From Kofleriaceae bacterium (GTDB lineage Bacteria > Myxococcota_A > Polyangia > Haliangiales > Haliangiaceae), in assembly GCA_048500355.1 (NCBI GenBank), contig JASNYD010000004.1:192001-256000 (forward strand): a DNA stretch of 64,000 nt, given 5' to 3'. Positions 21,054 to 63,325 of this stretch are shown here, in pieces. Position numbers and translations under genes: made by a program. Numbering within the stretch: position 1 is the stretch's first letter; each line of letters starts with the position of its first letter. The notes beneath the pieces were generated by a model. That model made no database searches. It was given only the letters and a program-made list of their open reading frames with translations, and was not told where the DNA came from.

Positions 21054-21218
21054 GGCGCGATCATGCCACGGCGCGCGACGGCCACGGCGCGCGACGGCCA
21101 CGGCGCGCGGACGCGATGGGCGTGGACCGCGGCGCGCGGCGCGGCGCGCGGGCGCGGCGCGCGGCCACGGCGCGCGTGCGCGGCGCGCGGCGATCACGGG
21201 ACGCGCGCGCGTCGCCGG

Positions 21219-22091: not shown

Positions 22092-22106
22092 CGAGCCTGA
22101 AAATCT

Positions 22107-22183
<77 letters not shown>

Positions 22184-22490: not shown

Positions 22491-22564
22491 TGCTGTCGTC
22501 CTACTGTCGTGGTGTGCCGCCGTCGCGAGAGCCACGTTCGTTGCCAAGAAAGGAGCGAACGATC

Positions 22565-25121: not shown

Positions 25122-25135
25122 GGGCGGCTTGCGCG

Positions 25136-48715: not shown

Positions 48716-49498
48716 CTACTTGTCCCCGTGGAACGAGAGCGACTTGTCGACCGACGCGCGGTCCATCGGCGCGTTCAGGTCGAGCGGCCAGCTCACGTCA
48801 TCCTCGTCACCAGGGTCGCCGCCGGCTCCGCCACCCTCGGGTGTGCGCGACGCCGGCAGGCCCACGTTCTTCTCGACCTTGCCGATGCGGTCGCCCTGTT
48901 CTTTGAGCTGCGTCTCGAGCTTCGAGATCGAGCCGGCGATGCCGTCGAGCTTGGCCATCACCGGGTCCGCGCCACCGGGCGCCGCGTCCCGCTTCTGCGC
49001 CGGCGCGGTGACCGCTGTCTGAAGCCGCGCGAGCGCCGCCTTGACCTGGTTGAGGAGCGCCGTGACCGACTCGGCCGCCTTGCGACGGCGCTCGGCCTCC
49101 GCCTTCTCGTCCTCGTCCTCGTCGTCGTCCTCCTCTCCGCCTTCCTCGTCGTCGTCGTCGGCGCCTCCGCCACCACCGCCGCCCTTCGGCTTCTTCGGCG
49201 GCGGAAACGCCTTCTCCGCCGCGTCGATCGTGACCAGCTCGGCCAGCGCGGTGACCGCCTCGGTCAGCGCGGCCATCGCCTCGGTCCCGCCCGTCGCGGC
49301 TCCGCCGCCGCTCCCACCATCGCCCGGCGCGTCGTCCGGCGCCGGCGTTCCTTCGTCCGCCATCTTCTGTCTCCTCTTCACGATCAGGAAGCGGCGCTGG
49401 TTCGCCGCCCGATCGACGAGGCTGACTTCCTCGACGATCATGTCCACCAGCCGATGCACGCCGTCGGCGCGCTCGGAGTCATCGTTGTCGCCGGCCAT
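48716..49498 (-). CDS. Putative capsid scaffolding protein.
   Basis: AAGGAG RBS before ATG ([13 protein letters not shown]). Conserved N-terminus ([22 protein letters not shown]), acidic Gly/Asp/Glu-rich linkers and coiled-coil segments. Lies between the protease-domain gene and the MCP. Confidence 0.45.
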
Positions 49499-50823
49499 CA
49501 CGCCGCTCCTTCGCCGCCCGGCTCGGGCACACGCCGTGCCGAGCCGCCGATCGAGAAGCCGGTAAAGTCGCCGGACTTGACCTTCGCCCACAGCGCATCC
49601 GACAGGACGTGGACGCCGAGCAGCCAGGTGCCCTTCTTCACCACCTCCTCGCCGATTCGCAGGTCGTCGAGCGCGAGATAGCTCTCCACGATCTTCACCT
49701 GCCCGTTCACCGGCACCTGGTGCATGAGGCCCAGGCCGCGGAACTCCTCCAGGAACCGGTGCGCGACCTTGCGCACCTCCTCCGCCGAGTAGATGTCCTC
49801 CTGCGCGTCGACCGTCTCCGGCTCGAGCACGACCCCCAGCACGAACCGCTGCTCGCCGCGCTCCTCCGCCTTGAGGACCCGTCCGGTGATGCGGAACTCG
49901 TCCTCGACTTGGCCGTCCCAGTCATCGATCTGCACCTCGTCGGTGCTGAGCCCCGCAAGCGCCTTGGCCGTCGGCTCATAGTTCGAAGCCAAGATCTGGG
50001 TGAGCACGCTCGAGCCGCCCACGCCGCGCATCGAGCGGATCGTCCGCGGCGTGCGGATGCGCTTGACCGTGAAGCCCGCCTCGACGAGGGCCTTGGGCAG
50101 CGTGCCGCGAATCCCGTACGTCATGAGCCACTTGCCCTTCAGGTCCTTCAGCACCTTGAGGAAGCGGGCCTCGTCGAACTTCTTCTCGCCGACGTTCGCG
50201 TCGTACCCGGCGTACGGCGGGTCGAGGAAGAACACCGTGCTCTTGCCGTCGTACTTCCGCACGACCTTCTCGTAGTCGCCGTCGTAGACCTTCACCTTGC
50301 GCAACCGCGGCGCGTGCTGCGCCACGCGGTCCACGGTCGACGCCTCGACGCCCTGCGCCACCGGCGAGAAGCTCCGTCCGCGCAGCTTCCCGTACGAGAA
50401 GTGCGTGACGTAGAGGAACTTGTAGAGCCAGTCCACGTCGCTCGACGGCTCGGCATCGTAGAGCTTGAGAAAGGTCGACTTGTCGCCCTTCCAGCTCCGC
50501 GACCGCAGCTTGCCGAGGAACGCGTCGTCGGACCGCTGGATGAGTCGGTACGCCTTCGCGATGTCGGCATCGAAGTCGTTGATCGCCTCCACGGCTGCTG
50601 GCTCCTTCGCGAACAGCACTGCGGCGCTCCCCGCGAAGGGCTCGACGTAGGTCGTGTGCGTCGGCAGGAGCCCGGCGAGCCGCTTGGCGATGCGTCGCTT
50701 GCCGGCGGGCGAGCTCCAGATGGTCTTCTCGACCTCCTCGCGCGCTCCGAGCGTGAGCGCCGTCAGCCGCTCGATCGCCGTCCGAACGCGGGCCAGCGCT
50801 TCGGCCGATCCGACCGTCGTCAT
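49498..50823 (-). CDS. DNA N6-adenine methyltransferase (Dam, D12 class) fused to a C-terminal XkdF-like prohead-protease domain.
   Basis: Dam motifs YVEPFAGSAAV...INDFDADIAKAYRLI and FFLDPPYAGY. The C-terminal 170 aa match the XkdF pattern (VLEPETVDAQEDIYSAEEVRKVAHRF...IVESYLA...GTWLLGVHVLSDALWAKVKSGDFTGFSIGG). Strong GGGAGG RBS. The long N-terminal extension of track ORF 49498..51147 is judged spurious. Confidence 0.7.
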   Translation of the reverse strand: MTTVGSAEALARVRTAIERLTALTLGAREEVEKTIWSSPAGKRRIAKRLAGLLPTHTTYVEPFAGSAAVLFAKEPAAVEAINDFDADIAKAYRLIQRSDDAFLGKLRSRSWKGDKSTFLKLYDAEPSSDVDWLYKFLYVTHFSYGKLRGRSFSPVAQGVEASTVDRVAQHAPRLRKVKVYDGDYEKVVRKYDGKSTVFFLDPPYAGYDANVGEKKFDEARFLKVLKDLKGKWLMTYGIRGTLPKALVEAGFTVKRIRTPRTIRSMRGVGGSSVLTQILASNYEPTAKALAGLSTDEVQIDDWDGQVEDEFRITGRVLKAEERGEQRFVLGVVLEPETVDAQEDIYSAEEVRKVAHRFLEEFRGLGLMHQVPVNGQVKIVESYLALDDLRIGEEVVKKGTWLLGVHVLSDALWAKVKSGDFTGFSIGGSARRVPEPGGEGAA

Positions 50824-51365
50824 GGCCGACCTCCCGCCACGCGCGCAACCCTGAGCGCGCGCACCCTCGCGCGCCCAGAAGCCGCTCGCGCTGTGCGGTG
50901 TCGCTCGTCGGGACGGCCGCCCTCGAGCGCGCCACGACCACGCAGCCAGGAGATCACCCGGCGCTGGGTCTGCACCTTGAGCCACGCTGGCGACACCCGA
51001 CGCCGCGGACGGAGCCGACACACGACGTCGAGAAACGCCACGACGACCAGGCTGTTTCCGTCGTCTTGGGACATCGCCTCCGATTCGAAGCGGCGGGCGA
51101 TGCGCTCGAGCCACGTGCGGCACGCGATGACCAGCGCCGCCGACCACGCCGGAGCCGGCGAGCGTTGGGCCTGACGGGTCAGCGCACCGACCAGGAGCTC
51201 GAGCCGCGCGTGAGAAGCGTCATGCAGCACCCGCGCAAGCGCTGGCCCAGTGCCCATCGCACGAAGGACGTGCTCCTTGGACGCGGCGATGTCGACGCCG
51301 TGCCAGGCGCTCGGTCGCGCCAGCCAGGCGGCCAGCCGTTCGATCAGCTCCTGGAATGAGCTCAC
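50820..51365 (-). CDS. Hypothetical phage protein.
   Basis: 181 aa. Its stop overlaps the Dam start (ATGA). Confidence 0.35.
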   Translation of the reverse strand: MSSFQELIERLAAWLARPSAWHGVDIAASKEHVLRAMGTGPALARVLHDASHARLELLVGALTRQAQRSPAPAWSAALVIACRTWLERIARRFESEAMSQDDGNSLVVVAFLDVVCRLRPRRRVSPAWLKVQTQRRVISWLRGRGALEGGRPDERHRTARAASGRARVRALRVARVAGGRP

Positions 51366-51700: not shown

Positions 51701-52425
51701 CAGCGCACCTCCGCGTCACGCCGCGCCTGCCGGATCTTGAGGAGCCCGGCTGCGGCGTAGTGGAGGCCGTCGATGACCTCCTCGAACGCCTCCGTCGCGT
51801 AGTCACGTCCGTCGTCGAGCGTCCACTCGCCGTAGGACTTCTTCCCCGCGGAGAGCCGCCGCGCGCACGTCCCGAGGATCTTGCGCTCGTCGGAACCGAG
51901 CCCGAGCGCAAGCGCGAGCCACAGGCCACCCTCGGCGAAGTGCCGAACGACACGTACCAGGAAGATCGCCCGCTCGCGCGCCAACGTGCCGGGCGGTGTC
52001 AGCGACAGACGCTCGGCAAGCCGCTCGATCGCCGGGTCGGCCTCATCGTCGAGGAGGCCAATGAGCGCGGTCGCCGCGCGGAGCTCGAGGTCGAACGGGG
52101 ACCGCGTCAGGAACTCCTCCGGCGCCGGATGGTGTTGTCGAAGCGCCTCGACCGCGCGCTTCAGATCCCAGGCGACGAGCAACGCTCCCTCCGCCGCCTC
52201 CCCGACCATCTCGGCGACGGTCTCCGCCTTGACGGGTACCGCGTCGAAGGTCTCGACGCTGTCGGCCCGGTGAACGCTGGCCGACGCTGTCCCACCCTCG
52301 ATTGCGAACAGAGACTCGATGCGACCCGCACAGCTCAGTCGCATGCAGACAACGTCGTCTTGCTTGTCCCTGGCCGTTGCCAGGATGCAGATCGGCAGCC
52401 GCGCCGTTCTCGGCTCGCTCTCCAT
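51700..52425 (-). CDS. Hypothetical phage protein.
   Basis: 241 aa. It is the first gene of the leftward late/structural transcription unit after the divergent region. Confidence 0.35.
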   Translation of the reverse strand: MESEPRTARLPICILATARDKQDDVVCMRLSCAGRIESLFAIEGGTASASVHRADSVETFDAVPVKAETVAEMVGEAAEGALLVAWDLKRAVEALRQHHPAPEEFLTRSPFDLELRAATALIGLLDDEADPAIERLAERLSLTPPGTLARERAIFLVRVVRHFAEGGLWLALALGLGSDERKILGTCARRLSAGKKSYGEWTLDDGRDYATEAFEEVIDGLHYAAAGLLKIRQARRDAEVR

Positions 52426-52924
52426 GACTCCTCCGCTCGTGTGATTTCGGCGACCCGCTGTCGCCCACCCAGCCGGGACGCGCGCCGCCGCGCGTCCCGA
52501 CTACCCTCGCGCCCCGCGACCGCCCCACGCACCCGCGTCCTGTCGGGCGCGCCCAACCGCCGCGCCGCAGACGCGACCGTGGCGACGCGCATCGGTCCGA
52601 CTGGTCCCGCAGGCCATGGGGTCGGTCGTATTCGTCCCGTTCACGCGGTCGACCCTACGGACGTGAGAGCGCGCGCGATAGGCGTGTTCCGAAACGTCAG
52701 TCGGTTCCGCGCATCCCGTAACGGCTCGCGTCGCACCGAAGGACACGCCTTGACGAGAAGCTCGGAACGGACCGCTGCGGGCGTCACGAAAGATCAACCG
52801 CCGCTGTTGTTTCCGGAAGCAGCCCGGTGGCCCTACCTTTGCCCGAGCGGTGAGCGTGGCTTCGACGCCGAAATCGTCGACGTCTCGCGAAACCGCGCCG
52901 CCGGCCTGCCGATACGCGCGCGCG

Positions 52925-54022
52925 ATGAAAGTCGCCTCAAACCCACCGTTCCCTGTCACCCGCCTTGGCGCTGGTGCGCGCGACCGAGATCTCTCCTCGC
53001 CAGGCGGCGCCGTCGCGTTCGTGGCGCTGACCTCGCGCGGGTACTACCGCATCCCGGCCGGCGCGACGCAGTTCATGATGGGCAGCGATCCGGCGCGCTG
53101 CGAGCTCGTGATCCCGGGCTGTCCCGAGATCTCGGGCCAGCACGTGCTCGTTCACGTCGAGGACGATCAGGTCTACGTCAGCGACGTCGGGTCGACGAAC
53201 GGCACGAGGATCGACGGGAGTCCGAGCCGGCGAGGTGCCGTCCGGCCTGGCAAGGTCATGGCCATGGCCGGCTATGGCGTGGTCCTCGTGTCCCAGCAGA
53301 TGAACCGCTGGCTCGAGGAGCTCAACGTCTACGTCGGCAGAACCCAGCACGCCTCCCAGCTGCTGGCGCTGTCGCCGAGTCGGCACCTCATCCTGATCGG
53401 CGAACGCTATACTCCGCTCGAGGAGATCGCGCGAGCCGCACACCACGCCGTCGCGACCGACGCGAGCCCAATCGTCTGCGTCCCGGTGGAGCACCCCTCG
53501 CACACCGAGGCACGCGTGCTCGAGCGCGCGATCAACGGGAGGGTCTTCATCGACGGCCGCGGCACCCCACGCCGAAGCGCGGCACCGATCTTCAGCGAGG
53601 AGCAACTGGATCGGCTGCGCCATCCGCAGCAGCTCACCGCTCTTACAGTTGGCCTGCGTCGCCCGGCAGATATCACGCTGCGGCTCCTCGAGCGCGACCC
53701 GTTCGTGCTCAACGTCCCGTCGATCAAGCACCGCATCGAGAACGGCGGGCTCGATGACCTGATCGACGCGCTCTACGTGAAGTGGGAGGTTCCGTTCCGG
53801 GCAAAGCACTGGGCCGGCGCGCTGCGCGACCGCATCGCCAACCATGCATGGAAGAAAGACCATACGCAGTTCACCGCGGTTGTCGTGGCCGTCGGACGGA
53901 TGTGGGCGGGCCTCGACGAGCACCACGCCGTCGAGGGGCTTGGCGCCACGCAGACCGTCAAGGACTGGCTCACGGCCCTGGACCTGGGCTGGGCCTCCGC
54001 GCGCGCCGGGCGTCCCCGCTAG
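52925..54022 (+). CDS. FHA-domain protein.
   Basis: FHA core YYRIPAGATQFMMGSDPARCELVIPGCPEISGQHVLVHVEDDQVYVSDVGSTNGTRIDG. Start taken at an internal ATG of track ORF 52850..54022. Confidence 0.6.
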   Translation: MKVASNPPFPVTRLGAGARDRDLSSPGGAVAFVALTSRGYYRIPAGATQFMMGSDPARCELVIPGCPEISGQHVLVHVEDDQVYVSDVGSTNGTRIDGSPSRRGAVRPGKVMAMAGYGVVLVSQQMNRWLEELNVYVGRTQHASQLLALSPSRHLILIGERYTPLEEIARAAHHAVATDASPIVCVPVEHPSHTEARVLERAINGRVFIDGRGTPRRSAAPIFSEEQLDRLRHPQQLTALTVGLRRPADITLRLLERDPFVLNVPSIKHRIENGGLDDLIDALYVKWEVPFRAKHWAGALRDRIANHAWKKDHTQFTAVVVAVGRMWAGLDEHHAVEGLGATQTVKDWLTALDLGWASARAGRPR

Positions 54023-54221
54023 AAGCGGCGTCGCGTAGTACGACGAGCGATCGGCGCACCGCGCGAGCCGCGTGCAACGAACCTCGATCGCGAAAGCGTC
54101 AAGCGCGAGCTTGCGCGCCGGATCGACCTGCACTACTTGTTGATGTCGGGCGGCGTGCGCGGTGGCGGATGATCGTCACGGTCGCGAAGCTGCCGAGACA
54201 ATCAGGTGCAGGAGGTTGGTG

Positions 54222-55142
54222 ATGGAGGGATGGCATGCTCCGGCGGAGCGAAGCGCCGGTGGTGATGGCACGGGTCCGTGGCTGAAGCTCGCCAACGACG
54301 GCGACGTCGCCGTTGTCGTGTTTCTCGGCGATCCGTACAGCCGCGAGGTCGTCTTCGACAGCGGTCGACAGGTACCGTTCGGTCGCGAGCACGCGCAGCA
54401 GGGCCTCGAGCCCAAGATGCGCTACGCGATCAACGTGGCCGTCTTGGCGACGACGATCGCCGGCATCAAGACGCCCGAGGTCAAGGTGCTGGAGATGTCC
54501 GGCGCGCTCTATCGCGACGTCTATGCGTTGCGCACGAAGTACGGCGTCGCTGACTGGGCGTTCGAGATCCAGCGCCACGGCAAGCCGAAGGATCCGAAGA
54601 CGATCTACCGCGTGTTGCCCGAGCGTCAGCTCACGCACGACGAGAAGGCGTGGATGGCCCGTGCGCCGCTGACCAACCTGCGCTCCCTGTACCAGGACCG
54701 TGGTGCTGGCGGCGACGCGGGTGGTGACAGCGGGCGTGAGCTCGCGCAGCACGTCGGACGGCTGGATCGGGACGGACAGCAGCGGTTCTTCGCGCGCTTC
54801 GGCATCCGAACGTTGTCCGAGCTCGAACCGGTGCTGGTGCCCAAGGCGCTCGAGTACCTGCGCGACCAGCCGGTGTCGCGTGCGGCTGGCTCCGAGGTGG
54901 AGGCTCCGGCCACGGAGACGGGCCGCGCGACGCTCCTGATCGGCAGCGAGCTCGCGAGCCAGATCGTCGTCGACCTGAAGAAGCTGCCGCAGGAGGCGGT
55001 GCAGGACTGGCTCAAGCACTGCGGGATCCAGCGCGTGCGCGACCTGCCGGTCGATCGGGTTCCGGACGCGAGGGCGTTCCTGGCGCTGCTGATGAAGGAG
55101 TTCGGCCCCGCGACGACGGCGGCGGTCGATCCGTACTCGTAG
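54222..55142 (+). CDS. Hypothetical phage early protein.
   Basis: GGAGG RBS before ATG (MEGWHAPAERS). 306 aa. No confident family assignment; weak resemblance to OB-fold proteins. Confidence 0.45.
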   Translation: MEGWHAPAERSAGGDGTGPWLKLANDGDVAVVVFLGDPYSREVVFDSGRQVPFGREHAQQGLEPKMRYAINVAVLATTIAGIKTPEVKVLEMSGALYRDVYALRTKYGVADWAFEIQRHGKPKDPKTIYRVLPERQLTHDEKAWMARAPLTNLRSLYQDRGAGGDAGGDSGRELAQHVGRLDRDGQQRFFARFGIRTLSELEPVLVPKALEYLRDQPVSRAAGSEVEAPATETGRATLLIGSELASQIVVDLKKLPQEAVQDWLKHCGIQRVRDLPVDRVPDARAFLALLMKEFGPATTAAVDPYS

Positions 55143-55208
55143 ACGCGGGCAACGCGACGGCAACGCGGTGTTGCCGTCGCGTACACGGTGGGCGGGAAGG
55201 AGTGGGAC

Positions 55209-56255
55209 GTGGGACGTTTCTCCAAGCGACTCGACGCGGACGACGTGCGCGCCGCGCTCACACGCGAGCTGGTCGTTCAGCACGTCAACCTGGAGGTGCG
55301 CGGTCGGCCGGATGGATGGTGGCGAGGTCGCAAATGCCCGGCGTGTGGCAAGGCGTGGCGCGACCTCGCCGGCTCGGGCTTCTGCATCGGCACGCGCGGC
55401 TGGACGTGCAAGGCGTGCACGGCGAGCGGCGACCTGCTCGACCTCCTCGCGCGCCTCACCGGGCTCGAGCCGCGCCGCGACTTCCGCCGCGTGCTGGCGC
55501 TGGGCGCTCAGCTCGCTGGTGTGAGCGCTGCTGACCACGATGGGACGCAGGCGCGACGAAGACGGGATCATACGGCCCGCGACGCTGCACGCCGCCGTCA
55601 CGAAGCGAACGACGCGCACGCACGGCGCCGCGACGCTCGCCGTCGCGCTGGCCAGCTCTGGCCGCGGCTCCAGGTCGATCATCCCGCAGGCCGCGCGTAC
55701 CTTGGACACCGCGGCCTCGATGTCGACGCGCTCATCGCACGTGGACTGATCCGCTTCTACTCGACTGGGTGGCGCGTTGGCGATGCGACTGGAGACCCAG
55801 CGGTGGCGCTCCACGATGGAGATGGCGAGCTCCTGAACGTCGTGCGTCGGCGGATCGGCCTCGACGAGCCGAGGACGCCGGGGCTGCGTGCCGCTCCCAC
55901 CGATGGCACGCTGGTGGGTCGCCTCGATCAGATCCAGGCGCGCGTCGACGTCGTGATCACCGAGGGCATCGTCGACACGTTGACCGCGGCGCTCGCCTGG
56001 CCGGCGTCAGTGGTCCTGGGCGCGCACGGCGCTGCACAGCTCTCGTGCGTTGTCGCGGCGGCGGCGCCGCGCGTGAGAGGCTGGGGTGGCCGCCTTGTCC
56101 TGGTTCCGGATCCGGATCCAGCCGGCCAGGATGCAGCCGTCAGGGCGGCGGAGCACGCGCTCCGAGCCGGCATGTCCATGAGGCGTGACCTCGACGTGCT
56201 CGAGCTCGGTGGGCACGATCTGAACGAGGCGTGGCGTGCCGGGTGGCGCCCATGA
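55209..56255 (+). CDS. DNA primase (zinc-finger plus Toprim domains).
   Basis: CPACGK...CKAC zinc finger. Toprim motifs VVITEGIVDTLTA and LVLVPDPDPAGQDAA. AGGAG RBS before GTG 55209. An alternative GTG lies at 55188. Confidence 0.65.
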   Translation: MGRFSKRLDADDVRAALTRELVVQHVNLEVRGRPDGWWRGRKCPACGKAWRDLAGSGFCIGTRGWTCKACTASGDLLDLLARLTGLEPRRDFRRVLALGAQLAGVSAADHDGTQARRRRDHTARDAARRRHEANDAHARRRDARRRAGQLWPRLQVDHPAGRAYLGHRGLDVDALIARGLIRFYSTGWRVGDATGDPAVALHDGDGELLNVVRRRIGLDEPRTPGLRAAPTDGTLVGRLDQIQARVDVVITEGIVDTLTAALAWPASVVLGAHGAAQLSCVVAAAAPRVRGWGGRLVLVPDPDPAGQDAAVRAAEHALRAGMSMRRDLDVLELGGHDLNEAWRAGWRP

Positions 56256-57505
56256 CTCTCCCGACCGCGAGCGAGCGGATCCTCGCGCTGGAGTACGAGC
56301 ACAGCATCGACGCGCTCGCGGCGCGCGATGCACAGCCGGACGAACGCGGTGGCACTGCGGCCCGACACCAGCGCGAGCCGCCGCCCGACGCCACCGAGAC
56401 CTACGGCGGCGACCTCTGCCACTTCATGGGGAGCGAGGCGGAATCCGTCCTGACTCCGTCGCAGATCTACCTGTGCGATGGCATGGTTGCCCGCGGTGAG
56501 CCGAACCTGATCCTCGGTGAGCCCAAGATCGGCAAGACCCTCGTCGTGGAGGACCTGGCCGTCTGCCTGGCCGCCGGTCTCCCGAACTTCTGCGGCCGAC
56601 CGATCTACGGGCGTGCCCGCGTCCTGCTCATGACCCGCGAGGATAGCGATCGGACAACGCGCTCGCGCCTCTGGCAGATCATGCGCGCGCGTGACACCTC
56701 CCCGCGCGCGCTGAGCGGCCACCTCGAGGTTGACGGCCATCAAGATCTGCAGCTCGACACGCGGAGCGATGTCGCCAAGCTGCGACGGACCCTCGCGCGT
56801 TTCGATGCCGTGTTCATCGATTCCTTGTCGACGATCCATTCCGCCGACGAGAACAGCGCCCGCGAGATGCGGCCGGTCACAAACGCCTGGCGCAGCCTGG
56901 CAGTCGAGACCAACACCGCCATCGTCCTCGTGCACCACCTGCGAAAGCCGACGGAGCTGTCAGCGAGAAGCAGGAAGCTCAACCGCGGTCGTGGCTCGAC
57001 GGCGATCGGCGCGACCGCGCGGCACATTCTCTTTCTCTCCGACGGACCCGGCACCAACCAGCTCGCGGTCGCCGTCGATGGGAACTTCTTCGGGATGCCT
57101 GAGCCATTCGTCATCGAACGGCAGGTGAACACCGATGGCACAGGCCGCTCCGTGAAGCACGAGGTCGTGGGAAGCGCGAACGTAGGCAGGGGAGCGTTGC
57201 CGAGCGCCCAGCGCGATTCCTCGATTTTGGAACCGCGTCCACGGAGCCAGGACCGACACGACGACGATGCGCGAACACGCGTGCTGGCGGTGATGCACGC
57301 CGCGAACGTGGCGCTGAGTCAGAACAAGATCGCCATCGCTGCATCCGGGCGGCGTGCCGACAACATCGCCGCTCTCAACGCCTTGCTGGTGGCAGGCGAG
57401 GTCGTCCAGGTCGAGGGACGTCGAACCGGGGGCTCCTACCCGTACGCCCTGACCTCACGTCTCGAAGACCTGAGCCTGCGACCCATCGGAAGGGGAAACG
57501 CATGA
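56252..57505 (+). CDS. RepA-like AAA_25 / RecA-fold ATPase (replicative helicase or helicase loader).
   Basis: Walker A GEPKIGKT. Walker B VFIDSL. IVLVHHLRK motif. The start overlaps the primase stop. Confidence 0.65.
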   Translation: MTLPTASERILALEYEHSIDALAARDAQPDERGGTAARHQREPPPDATETYGGDLCHFMGSEAESVLTPSQIYLCDGMVARGEPNLILGEPKIGKTLVVEDLAVCLAAGLPNFCGRPIYGRARVLLMTREDSDRTTRSRLWQIMRARDTSPRALSGHLEVDGHQDLQLDTRSDVAKLRRTLARFDAVFIDSLSTIHSADENSAREMRPVTNAWRSLAVETNTAIVLVHHLRKPTELSARSRKLNRGRGSTAIGATARHILFLSDGPGTNQLAVAVDGNFFGMPEPFVIERQVNTDGTGRSVKHEVVGSANVGRGALPSAQRDSSILEPRPRSQDRHDDDARTRVLAVMHAANVALSQNKIAIAASGRRADNIAALNALLVAGEVVQVEGRRTGGSYPYALTSRLEDLSLRPIGRGNA

Positions 57506-57646
57506 CCTGTTCCCGACGTCCCCGACCTGTTCCGCAACCGGAACAGGTCCACTTGTACCTGTACCTGTTCCCGCTCTTAAGAAGCGGGAACAGGGTACAG
57601 GTCTCGGAACAGGTCGAGGACTTGTTCCCGGCGCGGAACAGGTCTC
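57505..57646. repeat. Iteron-like array of ACCTGTTCC / GGAACAGGT repeats in both orientations, plus the palindrome GTTCCCGCT-cttaaga-AGCGGGAAC.
   Basis: About 8 copies in 140 bp (57505, 57525, 57540 inv, 57561, 57585 inv, 57606 inv, 57621, 57635 inv). A perfect 9-bp inverted repeat with a 13-nt spacer at 57540-57570. Lies between the RepA-like and helicase genes. Confidence 0.6.
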
Positions 57647-57686
57647 GCCCTCCCGCCGCCACCTTCCTCGACCCGGACGGAGTCTC

Positions 57687-59237
57687 GTGACGCACTTCGC
57701 GTTGCGGCCTTACCAGCAGTCGGCTGTCACGGCCGCCGAAGCGCGCTGGTCCGCCGGCGACCGAGCCACGCTGGTGCTGCTTCCGACAGGCACCGGCAAG
57801 ACCGTGGTGTTCTCCGAGCTCACACGTCGCGTGATCGCCGCCGGAGGTCGCTCCCTCGTCCTCGCTCACCGGTCGGAGCTGCTCGTCCAGGCACGCGACA
57901 AGCTCGAGGCGTTCGGCCTGTGGGCCCAGCTCGAGCAGGCCGAGCAGCGTGCCGGGCTGGCTCGGGCCGTCGTCGCATCGGTCCAGACCTTGCGCGGTCG
58001 TCGTCTCGCGACGTGGGCACGCGACGCCTTCGACCTCGTGGTTGTCGACGAGGCACATCACGCGTCAGCGAAGTCCTATCGCGACGTGCTCGATCACTTC
58101 GCCTCGGCGCGCGTTCTCGGCGTCACCGCGACCGGCGACCGAGCGGATGGAGCGAAGCTCGGCTCCGTCTTCGACTCGGTCGCGTTTCGCTACGAGCTCC
58201 GTGCCGCGATCAAGGATGGCTGGCTCGCCCCGATTCGTGCGCGTCGCATCCAGGTCGATGTCGACCTCGACCAGATCGAAACCGTCGCCGGCGACCTCAG
58301 CGAGGAGCAACTCGGTGAGGCGATGACGTGCAACAACGTCGTAGACGGCGTCGCGATCCCGCTGCTCGAGCTCGCCGAGGACCGACCGACCGTGCTGTTC
58401 GCGGTCACGGTGGCTCATGCTCGAGCGCTCGCCGCAGCTCTCAACCGCAGGCGTCCCGGATGTGCGCTCGCGGTCTCCGGATCGTCCTCCCCCGAGGAGC
58501 GCCGTGACGCTGCGGCCCAGCTTGCGACGCGGCAGGTCCAGTTCGTGTCGAACGCGCAGCTCTGGACGGAGGGCTTCGACCTCCCGGCGATCGCCTGCGT
58601 CGCCTTGGCGCGCCCGACCAAGAGCCGCTCGCTGTTCGTTCAGATGGTCGGCCGCGGGACCCGGCTCTCGCCCGGCAAGCACGACTGCCTCGTGTTGGAC
58701 TTCACCGCGAACACCGAGCGGCACCGCTTGGTGTCGGCGATCGACGTCCTTGGCGAAGAGCTTCCCGACGAGGTCCGTCGGCACGCACAGGCCGCACTCG
58801 ACCTCGGGGCCGAGGACGTGATGGACGTCGTCGACCGGATCGGCCGCGATGTTCAGCGCCAATCGACGCTCGTCCTCGAGGTCAAGACTCCGCGCGAGCA
58901 TGTTCGCGGTTGGGTTGCGGAGGACGTTCACGACCTGCTCGACCTCGGTGAGCCGCCGACGACGCCCGAGGTCTGGCAGACCGCCACAGAGCTGCAACGG
59001 TCCGCGCTTGTGGACGCCGGCATCTCGGTGACACGGGAGATGTCGCGTACCGAGGCGGCGCGGATCCTCACGGCACTGTCCCAGCGGCGTCAGGCGGGGC
59101 TGGCGACGTTCAAGCAAGTGCGCTGGCTCGCGGGCCAGGGAATCGACGCGAAGGGCATGGCGAAGACGGAGGCCACGGCACTGATCGGCGCGCGCATCAG
59201 GGCGGAGCGCAGCGGGGCGCCGAAGGCGCCCTCGTGA
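57687..59237 (+). CDS. SF2 DEAD/DEAH-box helicase (ResIII-like) with a C-terminal extension.
   Basis: Motif I LLPTGTGKT. Motif II VVVDEAHH. Motif III VTATGDR. Motif VI QMVGRGTR. GTG start with a GGACGGAG RBS. Confidence 0.8.
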   Translation: MTHFALRPYQQSAVTAAEARWSAGDRATLVLLPTGTGKTVVFSELTRRVIAAGGRSLVLAHRSELLVQARDKLEAFGLWAQLEQAEQRAGLARAVVASVQTLRGRRLATWARDAFDLVVVDEAHHASAKSYRDVLDHFASARVLGVTATGDRADGAKLGSVFDSVAFRYELRAAIKDGWLAPIRARRIQVDVDLDQIETVAGDLSEEQLGEAMTCNNVVDGVAIPLLELAEDRPTVLFAVTVAHARALAAALNRRRPGCALAVSGSSSPEERRDAAAQLATRQVQFVSNAQLWTEGFDLPAIACVALARPTKSRSLFVQMVGRGTRLSPGKHDCLVLDFTANTERHRLVSAIDVLGEELPDEVRRHAQAALDLGAEDVMDVVDRIGRDVQRQSTLVLEVKTPREHVRGWVAEDVHDLLDLGEPPTTPEVWQTATELQRSALVDAGISVTREMSRTEAARILTALSQRRQAGLATFKQVRWLAGQGIDAKGMAKTEATALIGARIRAERSGAPKAPS

Positions 59238-59727: not shown

Positions 59728-62304
59728 ATGACTGGCTCCGACGACACCGCCCTCGCGGGGTACCATATGTACTTCGCTCCGCCACTCGTCTCACCGAGTG
59801 GCAATGCGGCTCCGATGCGTGGCCCGCTCTCGGACGACTCGGGGCGCGCGCTGATGATCGCGCCCGGCGTCGAGCTCGACCCGCACGTCTACCCTGAGCT
59901 GATACCTGGGCGCTACCTGCTGGTGCCGGTGGACGCGCGCGGTCGCGAGCTGCCGCATCTGCAACGAATCGAGAAGCAGATCGTCGACACGCACCGAACG
60001 CGCTTGATGCAGGCCGTCACCGCCGAGGCAACACTGCTCGTGATGGGCGAGGCCCTCCAGAACCCGAAGCTCGCGACGGCGCTCTTCGACCTGGTTCAGT
60101 CGGGTGACAAGCAGGGGCTCCTGCTTCATGCGATGCAGCGAGCCGGCCAGGAGATCTGGGGCGGCCCGGTTCCCGATGCGCCTCTCGACGAAGAGACAAG
60201 GCGTCGCCTCGTGAAGATGACCGCCGACAAGCTCATCGAGAGCGTCCGCGGCGTCCTCGCCCAGGACGATCCCCAACGTTACCGTCTCGAGCGAGAAGGC
60301 TTCGATGCGCTCGTCAAGCAGCCCCTGGTGCTCTCGGTCGACCACATCATGGCGTCGGCGGCTCGCGCGGACTACGAGGACGCCGCGGTGCGCGCTCTTG
60401 CGAAGCTCTACATCCGTGAGGAGCTTCCGTTCTGGTTCGTCGGCGACATCCTGCCCGGCCTCGGCCAGCTCGACGTCTTTCTCATCCTCATCCGCTACGC
60501 GAGCGGCGACATCGTCGGCGGTCTCATCGAGCTCTTCGAGAAGGATCGCTTCCCGCGAACGCTCGAAGGGAGCGAGCAGCGAGCGCTTGCGCTGTTCGCG
60601 CTGTGGACCCTTGGCGGGGCTCCGGTGCGGCGACCGGTCCTTCGGTGGATGCGGCGTCTCATCCGCACGCCGCTCAGTGTCAGGGCGGCCGCTCTCCTCT
60701 TGTGGCTGGCGCGCGAGCTCGCCGACGCCGGCTTGAACCAGATCGTCGACGAGCTGGCGCTATCTGTGGAACAGAGCCTGATCGACGGCATCGGCACGGC
60801 TGCTGCTCACCTCCTCGCACGCGGCACGCTCGACGACGTGATCCTGCGGCTGCCGCAGCGGCGCGCAGACCTGCCCTTCCCTGGCGTGAGCGTTCGTGCG
60901 CCGCAGAAGCCCCGCCCGAACGAGCCTTGTCCCTGCGGCAGCGGATTGAAGGTCAAGAAGTGCCACGGCGATCGTGCCCTGGAGCTGGTGGCGCCAGCGG
61001 CGAGCCGCGGCCGGCAGATCCGTGAAGCCTCGGGCCGCATCCAACCAGATCAGGTTCCTCGGTTGGCGCGCGTCGACCTCGCCCGGATGGACCTCGGCAC
61101 GACTCGCGACGACACCCTCGTGCAGCTCCTCCGCTGGCAGATGTACCTGGCGGACTGGGACCGCGCAGGGCTGATCGCCGACGAGCTCGCCAGCCGCCCT
61201 TCGATGCGCGCGCAGGCCGACACCCACCGGTACGAGCTCATCACATGGGCCCTCCGGTACGACCAGCACGAGGTTGCCTCGAAGCAGATCGCGAAGCTCT
61301 TGAACCCGGAGACCGCGGCGGGCGTGCGCGTGATGCTCGCCCACCGCGCTGACGAGTCAGCCACACTCGCCGATCTGCGAACCGCCGCCAAGGTCGCTGT
61401 CGAGGATCCTACCGGGGCAAACGCGTTTGCTCTTGCCACGCTCCTGATGAGCTTCGACAAGTCGCTCGCGATTCTCGTCGCCCGAAGTGCGCTACGCCCT
61501 GACCAGCTCGACAACGCCGCTGTGCTGATCCAGCAGATCGAGGACGCGCGCGACGACCTCCTCCTTCCTCCCGGTGATCCGGCCATCGACCTCTTCACCA
61601 TGATGGGCGGTGTCCGCAAGGCCCGTGTCGCGGCAGACCAAGAGCGAGCTTCGCTCGCGAAGGAGGCTGACTCGCTGCGCAACGAGCTCGAGGCGAAGAC
61701 GCGACGGCTGTCGGAGATGGAGCGCGACTTGGAGCGTCGTGAGCAGGAGCTCCGCGAGGCGCGCCAGCGCGCCGACGATGCACAAGCTCAACCGACGCGT
61801 TCAGAGCAGGAGCGGCGGGCGAGCAAGGAGAAGATCGGGCGGCTCGAGGCGCTCGTGCGGGAGAAGAACGAGCAGCTCGCCGAGTCCCGACGCGCGCTCG
61901 CCGTCACGAGCGCGCCGACGCCAGTCGGGACGAGCGCGACCGTGGGGACTGACGACGACGACGATGAGGATGAACTCGAGGAAGCGCAGGACGCGGCGCC
62001 GCGGACCGTACTGGTCGCACGCTACACGCCGCGGGCGGCGACCGCCTTGGCGGCGGTCCCGCGCAACGTTGGAAGCATCGCTGCGCGTACGGTTGGGGCC
62101 CTGGCCGCGGGAGACGACGGCCCCTGGCGGAGTGTGAAGCAGGCCAAGGACATGCCGAGGCAGGTGTTGATGGCGCGTATCGGCATCCACTACCGGCTCT
62201 TGTTCCGTTGCGACACCGGCGGCGAGCTCGAGGTGGTCGACCTCGTCACGCGTGAAGACCTGATGTTGACGCTCAAGCGTCTCCGGAACACGAGGAGTCC
62301 ATGA
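59728..62304 (+). CDS. Large multidomain protein: N-terminal domain of unknown function, SEC-C zinc motif, helical (TPR-like) region, coiled coil, acidic linker, C-terminal RelE/ParE-like toxin domain.
   Basis: SEC-C motif PCPCGSGLKVKKCHGD (~nt 60926-60972). Coiled coil SLAKEADSLRNELEAKTRRLSEMERDLERREQELREARQRAD. DDDDDEDELEE linker. C-terminus MPRQVLMARIGIHYRLLFRCDTGGELEVVDLVTREDL resembles the RelE/ParE fold. Confidence 0.55.
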   Translation: MTGSDDTALAGYHMYFAPPLVSPSGNAAPMRGPLSDDSGRALMIAPGVELDPHVYPELIPGRYLLVPVDARGRELPHLQRIEKQIVDTHRTRLMQAVTAEATLLVMGEALQNPKLATALFDLVQSGDKQGLLLHAMQRAGQEIWGGPVPDAPLDEETRRRLVKMTADKLIESVRGVLAQDDPQRYRLEREGFDALVKQPLVLSVDHIMASAARADYEDAAVRALAKLYIREELPFWFVGDILPGLGQLDVFLILIRYASGDIVGGLIELFEKDRFPRTLEGSEQRALALFALWTLGGAPVRRPVLRWMRRLIRTPLSVRAAALLLWLARELADAGLNQIVDELALSVEQSLIDGIGTAAAHLLARGTLDDVILRLPQRRADLPFPGVSVRAPQKPRPNEPCPCGSGLKVKKCHGDRALELVAPAASRGRQIREASGRIQPDQVPRLARVDLARMDLGTTRDDTLVQLLRWQMYLADWDRAGLIADELASRPSMRAQADTHRYELITWALRYDQHEVASKQIAKLLNPETAAGVRVMLAHRADESATLADLRTAAKVAVEDPTGANAFALATLLMSFDKSLAILVARSALRPDQLDNAAVLIQQIEDARDDLLLPPGDPAIDLFTMMGGVRKARVAADQERASLAKEADSLRNELEAKTRRLSEMERDLERREQELREARQRADDAQAQPTRSEQERRASKEKIGRLEALVREKNEQLAESRRALAVTSAPTPVGTSATVGTDDDDDEDELEEAQDAAPRTVLVARYTPRAATALAAVPRNVGSIAARTVGALAAGDDGPWRSVKQAKDMPRQVLMARIGIHYRLLFRCDTGGELEVVDLVTREDLMLTLKRLRNTRSP

Positions 62305-63325
62305 GTACGATCCTTCACGGCGAGGCCCTCTGGACCGAGCTTCGTCGCCGCGCGCAGGCGAGCAAGCGGTTGGACGCCGTCGTCAGTTACATAGGCGGCA
62401 CCCGGCGAAGCTCATCAAGTGGCCCGCTCGATCGAGTGTCATCTGCGACTTGTCGCCCATGACCGTGGAGCGAGGGGCTTCGTCCGCGCGCGGCGCCCGC
62501 GAGCTCGTCGCAAAGAAGGTGGCCCTCTTTTCTCTCCCGGGCCTTCACGCGAAGGTCTACATCTTCGACGACAGCGCAATCGTGGCATCCGCGAACTTGT
62601 CGTCGCACTCGTCGGTCCTCATCGAGGCCGGAGTCCTTGTCACGTCTCGACAGGAACTTCGCGCGCTGCGTGCATTCGCGAATCAGGCTCGAGGCCGCGC
62701 GTTGCCGGTCGGTGACGATACCTACCTCAAGGAACTCGCGAAACGCGAACCGAAACACCTCGCGCCTCCGTCGCTGCCACGCCCACACGTCGGCACATCG
62801 CCGAAGATCGCGTTCACGGAGGGCGACGATGTTTGGGTGTGCACGTGCCAGCCCGACAAGAAGGAGACCAAGGCAGAGCGGAAGGCTAAGGCGCGCCACG
62901 CGACAGACCTTTCCGAAGTACATGGCCTGCCCGACGAGAGCTCGGTCGAATGGATAAACGGGTGCACCTCGGAGACGAAGCGCGCCCTCGCCGAGTTCCA
63001 CTACTGTTTCTATTGGTGGAAGCCGGCACCGGGTGAATGGAAGACCACCTACGGGTACCTCGATGGGCCTTGGCAATCACTCGGCGGCCTCGATCTGGGG
63101 AAGCAGTTCGGGGACCGGCGGTACTGCGTCCCCAACGTGAAGCGACGACGGCGAATGATTCGTATCGACCGCGAGCGCCTCGAGGTCCTGGCGGATGCCC
63201 TGGGTCGGACCATCCCCGCTGATCCGCGAGACCTGTGGCATCTCATCGACAAGGGACCTGCGCCTGCGAAGCTGAGCCGCAAAGGGATCGCGACACTGAT
63301 CGGGTTGATGAGGGAATCGAGGTAA
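62301..63325 (+). pseudogene. PLD-family (single HKD motif) nuclease, interrupted by a frameshift near 62400. This may be a genuine pseudogene or a sequencing indel.
   Basis: An ATG at 62301 overlaps the upstream TGA (ATGA) and encodes MSTILHGEALWTELRRRAQASKRLDAVVSYIGG. The frame then closes at 62460. The -1 frame continues from ~62402 as PAKLIKWPARSSVICDLSPMTVERGAS...LHAKVYIFDDSAIVASANLS (HxK...D...SANLS motif) to 63325. The track reports only the TTG-initiated 62450..63325 ORF. Confidence 0.5.

Follow-up and report, generated by a model that had tools for sequence, protein, structure and literature searches.

An array of short repeats located immediately downstream of a RepA-like helicase gene is probably the replication origin of an integrated prophage, where it would be bound by a self-loading initiator-helicase. 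Comparative and structural evidence makes this the best-supported explanation of the array, in line with the phage replication origin suggested in an earlier note on this DNA. The origin reading is favored because the array keeps a conserved position after the same gene, its repeat type covaries with the C-terminal domain of the adjacent protein, both appear to be inherited as a cassette, and the array seems to evolve under purifying selection.

Genetic context and architecture of the iteron array

The array belongs to an integrated tailed prophage that extends from ~22.2 kb of the window (the whole 64-kb stretch of DNA analyzed) to beyond its end at 64 kb. Prophage status is based on integrase, portal, tape measure, sheath and capsid genes together with adjacent tRNA genes; the integrase is encoded at 23604-25196, at the end opposite to the array. 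The replication module comprises, in this order, genes coding for an FHA protein, an SSB-like protein, a Toprim primase and an AAA_25 ATPase, followed by the array and an SF2 helicase gene. The array occupies the whole 181-bp gap between the latter two genes, which the earlier note had identified as encoding a RepA-like ATPase and a helicase, in agreement with their matches to AAA_25/DnaB_C and ResIII/DEAD, respectively. The features of this region are as follows.

55188..56255, plus strand: Toprim-type DNA primase gene (Pfam Toprim_3/Toprim_2, PHROG DNA primase families)
56231..57505, plus strand: gene of the RepA-like initiator-helicase candidate (RecA-fold ATPase core and predicted C-terminal winged-helix domain)
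57251..57460, plus strand: region coding for the C-terminal domain, residues ~341-410 (helix-helix-helix-strand-strand)
57502..57690, plus strand: 62-codon ORF spanning the whole array
57504-57644, both orientations: iteron array, 141 bp
57504..57513, plus strand: iteron R1, GACCTGTTCC, overlapping the TGA stop codon of the RepA-like gene
57524..57549: dyad unit A, GACCTGTTCCG-caac-CGGAACAGGTC, in which iterons R2 (plus strand) and R3 (minus strand) converge
57551..57602: dyad unit B, the central long palindrome, found by inverted-repeat search and folding
57606..57615, minus strand: iteron R8, GGAACAGGTC
57619..57644: dyad unit C, GACTTGTTCC-cggcgc-GGAACAGGTC, with iterons R9 (plus strand) and R10 (minus strand)
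57687..59237, plus strand: SF2 helicase gene (ResIII/DEAD/Helicase_C; phrog_16 DNA helicase, 4.9e-85)

The start of the RepA-like gene at 56231 is that of the longest ORF, and the gene call in the related locus L001 begins 7 codons later. The primase gene lies directly upstream of the RepA-like gene and overlaps it. In the relatives P0002 and P0003 the two genes are fused, with products of 702-713 aa in L002-L007 and in the P0003 contig. Together, the primase gene, the RepA-like gene and the 141-bp array cover ~2.5 kb. The SF2 helicase gene has a Shine-Dalgarno sequence of its own (GGAG). Pfam and PHROG searches revealed no RepC or RepB' family match among the ten proteins of the module, and no HUH or Rep_1/2/trans family protein in the replication module. 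A rolling-circle origin was rejected, as a hairpin is present but a nickase gene is absent from the module.

The array contains 10 copies of ACCTGTTCC, six exact and four with one mismatch, distributed five per strand, and an additional copy with 2 mismatches is found at 57551. About eight copies in both orientations within 140 bp had been reported in the earlier note; the clustering and the orientation held, while the count was revised to 10-11. Across the 64 kb, ACCTGTTCC yielded 22 matches with at most one mismatch compared with 6.5 +/- 2.5 expected, and none of 100 shuffles reached this number. Ten of the 22 near-matches are located inside 57505-57643, and six of the seven exact copies fall within the 141 bp of the array. 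The motif was also sought elsewhere in the element: the sole other exact copy in the 64 kb is at 7668 on the minus strand, in the host part, and no second cluster was found in the 64-kb window, where the best other 200-bp segment holds at most two core motifs. A host REP/MITE-like repeat was rejected, the motif being clustered at one spot in 64 kb and varying with the adjacent protein.

The array is organized as three dyad units with a spacing of ~47 bp. Unit A is an 11-bp perfect inverted repeat (arms 100% complementary) with a 4-nt spacer, and unit C (57619-57644) is a near-copy of unit A. The left side of unit B carries, on the plus strand, the degenerate copy ACTTGTACC, R4 ACCTGTACC and R5 ACCTGTTCC, and its right side carries R6 GGAACAGGG and R7 GGTACAGGT on the minus strand. 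R4 and R5 are therefore opposed to R6 and R7 on the other side of the core, and an outer unit lies on either flank. The inner stem of unit B is CCGCT/AGCGG and its core is CTTAAGA, with CTTAAG at 57577-57582. The palindrome centered on CTTAAGA that had been quoted before is indeed present, with the perfect arms CCTGTTCCCGCT and AGCGGGAACAGG (57564-57575 / 57583-57594); when one bulge is allowed, the arms reach 19/20 nt (57557-57602), the extra base being in the 3' arm. The 9-bp inverted repeat with a 13-nt spacer listed alongside it exists as well (CCTGTTCCC...GGGAACAGG), but it is part of the central palindrome and not a separate feature. Two inverted repeats, at 57524-57549 and 57619-57644, were absent from that description.

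When folded as a single strand, the 151-nt region reached -52 kcal/mol compared with -23 +/- 3 for shuffled sequences (z = -9.3). The central palindrome gave -20.9 kcal/mol (z = -8.1) in a single-sequence fold against shuffles. The CTTAAG core is the most AT-rich spot in the gap with only 7/12 A/T, an AT content reached by no more than 2% of the 12-mers of the prophage part. No long AT tract or extended AT-rich unwinding element was found at the array, nor any DnaA box (at most one mismatch) within +/-300 bp of it. Spacing between iterons is irregular (6-24 bp) and lacks the helical phasing of classical iteron plasmids.

Constraint on the array and its linkage to the C-terminal domain

Alignment of the window with L001 revealed 94.1% identity over 3225 nt. 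Within the array, 2 substitutions were found in 141 nt, compared with 17 expected at the third-codon-position rate (P = 3e-6). Of these two, one brings an iteron back to the consensus, R9 being a perfect GACCTGTTCC in L001. Furthermore, the only 2 indels of this 3.2-kb alignment fall in spacers of the array, and their lengths cancel. This pattern of substitution indicates strong purifying selection on the array at the DNA level.

The 62-codon ORF that spans the array had not been mentioned in the earlier note. It is joined to the RepA-like stop codon by ATGA and to the helicase start codon by GTGA. Since the ORF is preceded by an SD-like GGAAGGGGAA and its net frame persists in L001, translation of this ORF is possible, and the array could be read as a gene product, that is, a small translationally coupled protein or a structured RNA. 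The ORF and its length are retained in L001 despite the two indels, and an ATG or GTG overlapping the stop codon is also found in L012, L017, L021 and L023. However, the compensating indels rewrite residues 7-16, the Arg/Pro-rich product has no Pfam or PHROG match, and its GC3 is 0.76 compared with 0.83-0.84 in the adjacent genes. In L002-L007, the gene caller placed no ORF on the array and the gap is intergenic. As for a structured RNA, Rfam returned generic-hairpin matches only, with 19-20 bits where the gathering scores are 70-100. Dyad symmetry and the multiplicity of repeats are the features kept across loci, as opposed to a reading frame. The 62-codon ORF is probably not a protein-coding gene, and we regard a gene product of either kind as an extremely improbable explanation of the array.

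Relatives were found by alignment-based scans and exact-protein look-ups. The comparative set consists of 11 related loci (L001, L002, L008-L012, L017, L021-L023); it is small, with ~6 independent repeat types, and every locus stems from a metagenome or MAG within a single lineage. Their repeats are listed below.

L001: ACCTGTTCC
L002, L008 and L011: GCTGGTTCCC / GTGGTCCCC
L009 and L010: GCGGTTCCC
L012 and L023: GATCGGTTCC
L017: CGCGTGCCC
L021: CCGGTTCC, degenerate and not significant in the exact-8-mer test
L022: CTGTCACCC, without AT core

In these loci the array begins 0-60 bp past the stop codon of the gene for the RepA-like homologue, a position that is kept in most of the 11. An unbiased scan for recurring 8-mers ranked the 300 bp following the stop codon first across the entire locus in 7 of the 11 cases. 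The same scan of the 64-kb window showed that these 300 bp are matched by 4 of 1262 other windows, which correspond only to a GC-rich tandem repeat in a host gene. No array follows the stop codon in the negative control L014, which encodes a distant DnaB_N-type homologue. L021 and L010 are the weak cases among the related loci.

A long palindrome built on the same plan, with an iteron, a GC stem and a small AT-containing core (CTTAAG, TTTAAAG, CTAAAG or CTTTAG), recurs among the loci. In single-sequence folds against shuffles, the palindromes reached z values of -3.3 to -8.1 in 7 of 9 loci. An RNAalifold analysis of the nine palindromes gave no usable information because MAFFT cannot register the arms, given their bulges and differing stem lengths. 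Beyond these loci, searches of sequenced phages at the DNA and protein levels revealed no close relative, only a 139-bp helicase match and primase-helicase matches of 25-28%. No relatives were found among PLSDB plasmids (tblastn), in IMG/VR by protein patterns, or in an initial scan of GTDB genomes using one protein. L020, the sole match of a generic-palindrome scan of IMG/VR, was rejected as a chance match on a low-GC contig, with a tRNA neighbor and an ordinary-looking hairpin.

The RepA-like protein (424 aa) matches Pfam AAA_25 (4.7e-30) and, weakly, DnaB_C. Its core was modeled by AF2 with a pLDDT of ~90, and a Foldseek search of the PDB returned RSF1010 RepA (1g8y, TMt 0.77), DnaB, RadA and T7 gp4. 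The three RSF1010 RepA structures 1g8y, 1nlf and 1olo matched with TMt of 0.72-0.77 and E ~1e-10. By these Foldseek matches, the protein is a putative RecA-fold helicase of the RSF1010-RepA/DnaB type, which would form a hexamer. The C-terminal domain has a winged-helix topology in the predicted structure (pLDDT 82-90). When this domain was searched in isolation, nearly all top Foldseek matches were winged-helix proteins (MarR family, AspA, TFE, RNAP III C34), with TMq of 0.55-0.62 and weak E-values of ~0.015 or worse. [quoted passage not shown]

This domain is hypervariable across the RepA-like family. The cores of the RepA-like proteins are 53-69% identical between groups and their C-terminal domains are unalignable, and loci that share a C-terminal domain type share the same iteron type. 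Comparison of L002 with L011 at the DNA level revealed that the core is 98-100% identical and that identity falls to ~81% exactly from the onset of the C-terminal domain. It then ranges from 55 to 88% through the array, and similarity is lost just past the palindrome. In these alignments, the C-terminal domain and the array behave as a mosaic cassette whose parts would move jointly.

Centromere-like and pac sites, too, typically contain clustered short repeats, both inverted and direct. Given this shared architecture, the array might serve as a platform for another protein, whether a partition/centromere-like site, a pac site or an accessory site for recombination, and in L002 and L008 it adjoins the host-like genes ftsH and htrA, with the prophage perhaps ending nearby. 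In the window, however, the array is internal to the element, its neighbors include no ParA/ParB, terminase or recombinase gene, and the integrase is at the other end. Furthermore, the repeat type follows the C-terminal domain of the adjacent protein, and the two behave as one inherited cassette. We consider such a platform highly unlikely. A centromere or pac site was rejected, its partner gene being absent and the array being linked to the C-terminal domain.

The genes downstream of the array vary among relatives and are often convergent, and an SF2 helicase gene is located 3' of it solely in the window and L001. The earlier note had proposed, as an alternative to an origin, an operator cluster controlling the helicase gene and a downstream defence-like operon. 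As the array fills the gap between co-oriented genes, a bound protein or a hairpin would affect read-through, and the array could be an operator or roadblock cluster controlling transcription from the RepA-like gene into the SF2 helicase gene and beyond. The bound protein would be a regulator or the RepA-like protein, with the palindrome serving as a terminator or attenuator. The central palindrome is stable, and in L002, L008, L009, L010 and L011 the palindrome is followed by convergent genes with no other element in between, an arrangement compatible with an accessory terminator-like role. Conversely, the array trails the RepA-like gene regardless of the genes that follow, and copies of the motif are absent from the divergent early promoter region (52425-52850) and from the rest of the element. 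The central palindrome has no T-run on its 3' side, and the promoter/terminator scan called no site in the array. Ten bidirectional sites that covary with a domain attached to a helicase would also be unusual for an operator. Control of downstream genes is thus not favored as the primary role of the array, and we judge it unlikely. Since the array lies in transcribed/translated territory between co-oriented genes, a regulatory role could coexist with origin function, and read-through to the helicase gene may, as a secondary effect, be hindered by a roadblock at the array.

Proposed initiation by a self-loading RecA-fold helicase

In the origin reading, the RepA-like protein would combine a RecA-fold hexameric helicase core, a disordered linker and the C-terminal winged-helix domain, and the 9-10-bp iterons would be bound by the winged-helix domains. 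Since the flanking iterons mostly point to the CTTAAG core, protomers would assemble on both flanks of the palindrome, probably as two rings. The duplex would open at or around the palindrome, either by melting of the AT core or by cruciform extrusion. The helicase would then load itself, priming would be carried out by the adjacent Toprim primase, which is fused to it in relatives, and prophage replication would initiate at the array.

We tentatively propose that this system could represent a previously uncharacterized class of bacterial self-loading initiator-helicases, in which a RecA-fold (SF4-like, RSF1010-RepA/DnaB-type) ring helicase would recognize its own origin through a C-terminal winged helix and would need neither a separate initiator nor a loader, a possibility for which the odds seem to us somewhat short of even. 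Such a class may be convergent with AAA+ initiator-helicases (SaPI Rep, P4 alpha, SV40 T antigen, papillomavirus E1). Within this RecA-fold self-loading reading, specificity would reside in an exchangeable cassette made up of the C-terminal domain and the iteron array. The conserved GC-stem palindrome with its tiny AT core, in which the 3' arm always has a bulge, would be the opening or loading site, and would replace the AT-rich unwinding element in a genome of ~70% GC. The self-loading origin-binding helicases that we found in the literature are AAA+ (SF3/MCM-like), with no RecA-fold example among them. To our knowledge, the known DnaB/RepA-type examples require a separate initiator or loader.

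A downstream origin served by a self-loading helicase is a layout already known from SaPIs, SCCmec, P4 and pRN1 and is not a new principle; if true, our proposal would extend this known layout from AAA+ to a RecA-fold DnaB/RepA-type helicase. If correct, it would also provide a minimal origin and initiator module for prophages of Kofleriaceae-like Myxococcota, for which autonomously replicating vectors are, as far as we know, scarce. Furthermore, the at least five matched types of C-terminal domain and iteron would offer a natural series for winged-helix specificity and the evolution of replicon incompatibility.

Comparison with known replication systems

In SaPIs, the C-terminal winged-helix domain of the Rep helicases binds 6-12 iterons located directly downstream of rep, and the iterons flank an AT-rich center in opposite orientations (PMC9371898). 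SaPI/PICI Rep-ori modules, from Staphylococcus aureus pathogenicity islands, are credited to Ubeda et al. 2007 as cited in PMC9371898 and PMC7581432. The prophage module shares with them the order of primase gene, candidate initiator-helicase gene and proposed origin (primase and helicase are fused in SaPI5, and in the P0002/P0003 relatives here). It also shares multiple short iterons directly past the rep ORF (here 10-11 copies in 141 bp, the first overlapping the stop codon). The C-terminal domain, a predicted winged helix whose type covaries with the iterons, would be the counterpart of the SaPI domain that reads them, and specificity would likewise vary between elements. Opposed iterons lie on both sides of the center here too, but its AT-rich part is only CTTAAGA, with 7/12 A/T. 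In contrast, SaPI Reps are AAA+ (SF3-clade) 3'-5' helicases, whereas the protein described here has a RecA fold nearest to RSF1010 RepA and DnaB. Since its Pfam matches are AAA_25/DnaB_C only, without DUF927 or Primase_Cterm, and its structural neighbors have the RecA fold, we regard it as a SaPI analogue and not as a family member. SaPI iterons are 5-6 bp long compared with 9-10 bp here, and the extended AT-rich tract of SaPIs contrasts with a long GC-rich palindrome bearing a 7-9-bp AT-containing core. Finally, SaPIs are satellites, whereas the module described here resides in a full tailed prophage of a high-GC Myxococcota-type genome.

RSF1010 (IncQ) provides, with RepA, the closest structural match to the helicase core (1g8y, TMt 0.77). 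Both replicons encode a helicase and a primase of their own, and the RSF1010 origin, like the proposed origin here, pairs iterons with palindromic elements. The primase is of the RepB' type in RSF1010 and of the Toprim type here. RSF1010 iterons are ~20-bp direct repeats located beside GC-rich and AT-rich blocks, whereas the array consists of 9-10-mers in both orientations. RSF1010 RepA needs a separate initiator, RepC. No RepC-like initiator was found here, and the predicted winged-helix domain fused to the helicase appears to be its substitute. The palindromic elements of the RSF1010 origin are ssiA and ssiB, which are 40-nt inverted repeats (PMC8567376).

The alpha protein of satellite phage P4 resembles the proposed initiator in that a polypeptide combining primase, helicase and a C-terminal DNA-binding domain recognizes short bidirectional repeats. 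The P4 alpha repeats are copies of the octamer TGTTCACC. However, the alpha helicase is of the SF3 type, and P4 depends on ori and crr, two cis sites located apart from each other, whereas the window contains one cluster.

In SCCmec, the putative origin lies immediately 3' of the Cch2 gene, where direct repeats are bound by Cch2 (PMC7581432). pRN1 requires a conserved stem-loop, poorly conserved in sequence, downstream of its primase-helicase gene (PMC4234260). Both Cch2 and pRN1 ORF904 thus resemble the present system by a cis site directly downstream of the helicase or primase-helicase gene, and the pRN1 stem-loop parallels the conserved palindrome. They differ by their helicase families (D5/MCM-like, SF3) and by their repeats, which are far fewer (3 in SCCmec) or absent (pRN1).

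Classical iteron origins (lambda ori within gene O; pPS10, R6K, RK2, F and P1) rely on initiators that are not helicases and that recruit host DnaB. Their 17-22-bp phased, mostly direct iterons, DnaA boxes and long AT-rich element have no counterpart here. Nevertheless, they resemble the proposed origin in that multiple initiator-binding repeats set specificity, and in that the DNA-binding domain of the initiator and its sites evolve as a cassette.

Structure and genomic setting of the repeat array

GC content falls from ~75% at positions 1-22,000 to ~69% in the remainder of the window. The following features were identified:

22020-22183: tRNA-Val and tRNA-Asp (tRNA-Asp at 22107-22183)
22448-23260: ORF of an XRE-type regulator, which with a large serine integrase follows the tRNAs
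minus strand: virion genes for portal, baseplate, tape measure, sheath, major capsid and methyltransferase-protease
52850-54022, plus strand: FHA-domain protein, start of the plus-strand early module
54162-55142, plus strand: 326-aa protein with a weak SSB-family match
55188-56255, plus strand: Toprim primase
56231-57505, plus strand: AAA_25/DnaB_C ATPase (RepA-like)
57506-57686: 181-bp gap containing the array
57687-59237, plus strand: ResIII/DEAD SF2 helicase
59728-62304, plus strand: SEC-C-motif protein, 858 aa

The virion, integrase and early-module genes mark an integrated tailed prophage, and the array sits within its replication module. The primase and RepA-like ATPase genes overlap at 56231-56255 and are replaced by a single 702-713-aa fusion in relatives P0002 and P0003. 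The order FHA protein, ~310-326-aa weak-SSB protein, primase and RepA-like ATPase is kept across Kofleriaceae-type prophages (window 52850-57505, L002 3755-8109 and the P0003 contig); an FHA protein as first early gene is unusual. Downstream of the helicase, the SEC-C protein is followed by a protein with a weak PLD-like match (62450-63325), and a 900-aa SEC-C protein likewise follows the replication module of the P0003 contig; region 59728-63325 may be accessory or defence-like. The methyltransferase-protease (49498-51147, minus strand) fuses a D12-class DNA methyltransferase to an S78-type head-maturation protease domain (phrog_13242, 5e-185) and is also found in L002 and on the P0003 contig.

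A motif search for the 9-mer ACCTGTTCC or its complement returned 10 copies with at most one mismatch within 57500-57650, most of them extending to the 10-mer GACCTGTTCC:

57505, 57525, 57563, plus strand: exact copies
57540, 57606, 57635, minus strand: exact copies
57557, 57620, plus strand: one-mismatch copies
57587, 57594, minus strand: one-mismatch copies
57551: weaker copy, ACTTGTACC
57524-57549: unit A, GACCTGTTCCG-caac-CGGAACAGGTC
57557-57602: unit B, a long palindrome with perfect 12-nt arms CCTGTTCCCGCT / AGCGGGAACAGG around CTTAAGA
57619-57644: unit C, GACTTGTTCC-cggcgc-GGAACAGGTC, with one more copy ahead of it (57606-57615)

In this layout (repeat family D1), a single copy that overlaps the upstream gene's TGA is accompanied by three dyad units, which succeed one another at intervals of 47-48 bp. 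The arms of unit B reach 19/20 nt if one bulge is allowed, and its core has 7 A/T bases out of 12, in the top 2% of 12-mers. Iterons lie at -51, -18.5 and -12.5 (forward) to the left of the unit B dyad and at +11.5, +18.5, +31 and +60 (backward) to its right, and so mostly face its core; their spacing is irregular. Folded as a single strand, the region reached -52 kcal/mol compared to -23 for shuffles (z = -9.3). There is no long AT-rich unwinding element at the array, and a scan around it found no DnaA boxes.

An earlier note made from the sequence alone had correctly given the array coordinates, the palindrome and the flanking genes; the 9-bp inverted repeat with a 13-nt spacer that it listed is present as the inner part of unit B, not as a separate feature. 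The array is real and highly non-random: the 64-kb window holds 22 ACCTGTTCC-type matches against 6.5 ± 2.5 expected, a count reached in 0 of 100 shuffles; the sole exact copy outside the array is at 7668, in the host part, and elsewhere a 200-bp window contains two core motifs at most. A second, unrelated array at the left end of the prophage (22355-22475) consists of six direct copies of GCGTGAC(A/T/G)G, 20-30 bp apart (22355, 22385, 22405, 22426, 22446 and 22467). Six of the 11 matches in the window thus fall within 120 bp, between tRNA-Asp and the start of the XRE-type regulator ORF, and may be operator or integrase arm-type sites.

Conservation across related loci and selection on the array

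No close relatives were found among sequenced phages, plasmids or IMG/VR. Usable DNA was obtained for 11 related loci, by way of the contigs of 22 homologues in the protein database and of alignment-based scans of GTDB genomes and JGI metagenomes. This small set comes from a single lineage, and its three genome matches are all Kofleriaceae (Myxococcota) MAGs. The repeat types were:

L001 (~94% identical relative): ACCTGTTCC
L002, L003, L008, L011: GCTGGTTCCC / GTGGT(C/T)CCC
L009, L010: GCGGTTCCC
L012, L023: GATCGGTTCC
L021: CCGGTTCC (weak)
L022: CTGTCACCC
L017: CGCGTGCCC

In an unbiased scan, 300-bp windows were ranked by how often their most recurrent non-trivial 8-mer occurred. The window following the RepA-like stop codon came first within the whole locus in 7 of 11 cases; L008, L010 and L022 were intermediate and L021 was not significant. 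Within the 64-kb window, its recurrence was equalled only by a GC-rich tandem repeat in a host gene (4/1262 other windows). GC-rich tandem repeats with periods of 13-42 bp occur at 21065-21190, near the start of a minus-strand host ORF (19797-21197) and within it, and at 21713-21884, upstream of tRNA-Val; outside the array, only the former reaches a comparable 8-mer recurrence in the window. L014 (Ga0316204_10000005, 1.17-Mb contig, 3501-4679; 42% identity, DnaB_N + AAA_25), a distant homologue of the DnaB_N type, has no array after its stop, which limits the pattern to the closer subfamily.

Nearly all loci carry a long palindrome made of an iteron, a GC-rich stem and a small AT-containing core (CTTAAGA, CTCTTAAAGAAGAG, CCCTTAAGAGGG, CCCCCTAAAGGGGG, CCCCCTTTAGGGGG or CCCTAAGGGTTAGGG), with folding z-scores of -3.3 to -8.1 in 7 of 9 loci. 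Most well-folding palindromes show a consistent asymmetry: their 3' arm has an extra bulge of 1-5 nt, located where the GC stem gives way to the outer iteron (window 57596; L002 8346-8347; L009 4717; L012 2676-2679; L023 3607-3611). Position and architecture of the array are conserved and its sequence is not.

The genes after the array vary in identity and orientation: the SF2 helicase follows it in the window and L001 alone, L002 and L008 have convergent ftsH/htrA-like genes, and the remaining loci have other convergent or unrelated genes. Therefore, the array is to be grouped with the RepA-like gene, at whose 3' end it lies, rather than with the helicase or downstream operon. The earlier note had offered an operator cluster as its alternative. 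Since the array lies on the only transcription path into the helicase gene, where any bound protein would sit, action as an operator, roadblock or terminator may be a side effect. Such action as its main role fits poorly with the variable downstream genes, with the absence of the motif from promoters elsewhere in the window and with a signal scan that found no terminator or promoter signals in the array.

Alignment of the window with L001 (3225 nt, 94.1% identity) contains only two gaps, both single-base indels in array spacers: -1 between the first two iterons and +1 after the third (window 57520-57522 and 57549-57550; L001 1920-1945). These cancel in length, so that both the array length and a 62-codon ORF are kept. 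The two flanking genes have diverged by 12% at third codon positions. Within the 141-bp array there are 2 substitutions, compared to 17 expected at the third-position rate (P = 3e-6) and 8.5 at the all-site rate (P = 0.008), and one of them makes the ninth iteron a perfect GACCTGTTCC in L001; the 42 bp past the array contain 4 substitutions. Therefore, the array is constrained as DNA, with spacers that tolerate indels and an overall length that is kept.

Formally, the gap is the 62-codon ORF (57502-57690), which overlaps its neighbours through ATGA and GTGA. A small protein is disfavoured because the indels rewrite residues 7-16, no Pfam or PHROG family matches, GC3 is below that of the neighbouring genes, and in L002-L007 the gene caller predicted no ORF across the array, leaving that stretch intergenic. 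This ORF is most likely not a gene, with some doubt left by an SD-like GGAAGGGGAA ahead of its ATG and by stop-overlapping ATG/GTG codons that recur in L012, L017, L021 and L023. A structured RNA is likewise disfavoured, by an Rfam search.

The RepA-like C-terminal domain and its link to the repeats

An AlphaFold model of the RepA-like protein (mean pLDDT 75, core ~90) comprises:

residues ~60-315: RecA-type core
residues 318-342: disordered linker
residues 341-410: compact helix-helix-helix-strand-strand C-terminal domain (pLDDT 82-90)

The best PDB neighbours of the core are RadA, DnaB, the RSF1010 hexameric helicase RepA (TMt 0.72-0.77) and T7 gp4. Modelled alone, the C-terminal domain matched almost exclusively winged-helix DNA-binding domains (MarR family, AspA, TFE, RNA polymerase III C34) at TMq 0.55-0.62; the E-values are weak (~0.015 or worse), as a query of 89 residues would be expected to give. 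Family members share a well-conserved core but have a hypervariable C-terminal domain: between groups, cores are 53-69% identical and C-terminal domains essentially unalignable.

Related C-terminal domains go with a common repeat (L002/L008/L011; L009/L010; L012/L023, with L021 related). Between the L002 and L009 subgroups, these domains are 52-56% identical and the repeats differ by one base (GCTGGTTCCC vs GCGGTTCCC). The pattern is clearest between L002 (7850-8390) and L011 (840-1380): DNA identity is 98-100% in the core, ~81% from roughly 260 nt before the stop, where the C-terminal domain starts, and 55-88% through the array; homology is gone ~280 nt past the stop, just beyond the palindrome. 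Thus, C-terminal domain and array share a history distinct from that of the core, as would be expected of a protein domain and its binding sites. This profile suggests that both may be exchanged as a cassette whose end is marked by the palindrome. If another protein bound the array as a centromere, pac or recombination site, this linkage would be left unexplained, and no partner genes lie nearby.

Origin reading and comparison with known systems

The main reading of the earlier note, a replication origin, is the best supported, the array being non-random, position-conserved and under selection; we consider it probable that the array is the origin of the prophage. Weighing on this reading are the lack of a long AT tract and of DnaA boxes, the irregular spacing and the small one-lineage set. 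In the mechanism we propose, the predicted winged-helix domain of the adjacent helicase-like protein would recognize the array, the DNA would open at the CTTAAG core or by palindrome extrusion, and priming would then fall to the primase, whose gene lies just upstream and in P0002/P0003 is fused to that of the helicase. That the helicase-attached winged helix itself reads the iterons and that the protein loads itself is, taken jointly and from modelled structures, a tentative proposal that may well not hold. Loci with different C-terminal domain types have similar GC stems, cores and GTTCC(C) iteron segments but differ in the 3-4 bases at the 5' end of the iteron, suggesting two recognition layers. 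The winged-helix domain would read the variable one; the conserved one would, speculatively, be read by the helicase core, the primase, a host factor or some other conserved component.

To our knowledge, RecA-fold helicases need separate initiators or loaders. If true, a self-loading-helicase origin with a different helicase class would exist in Myxococcota prophages, the general design being already known. RSF1010 RepA is the closest structural relative of the RepA-like core. This locus does not show the IncQ layout, in which a separate RepC and a RepB' primase go with direct iterons of ~20 bp. Lambda ori and the classical iteron plasmids have a different type of initiator and iterons of another size and phasing; DnaA boxes and the unwinding element are further points of difference. 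P4 alpha/ori-crr, SCCmec Cch2 and pRN1 ORF904 likewise have a cis site adjoining a primase-helicase gene (PMC7581432, PMC4234260). Functionally, the closest match to the array and RepA-like gene is the Rep-ori of SaPIs/PICIs, although the RepA-like protein falls outside that Rep family because its helicase is of the RecA fold (AAA_25), not AAA+. At SaPI origins, iterons are opposed around an AT-rich centre, which two Rep hexamers are thought to flank when they load (PMC9371898). The likeness extends to iterons directly after the rep ORF and opposed around a centre, a winged-helix C-terminal domain (predicted here) and an adjacent or fused primase (PMC9371898, PMC7581432).
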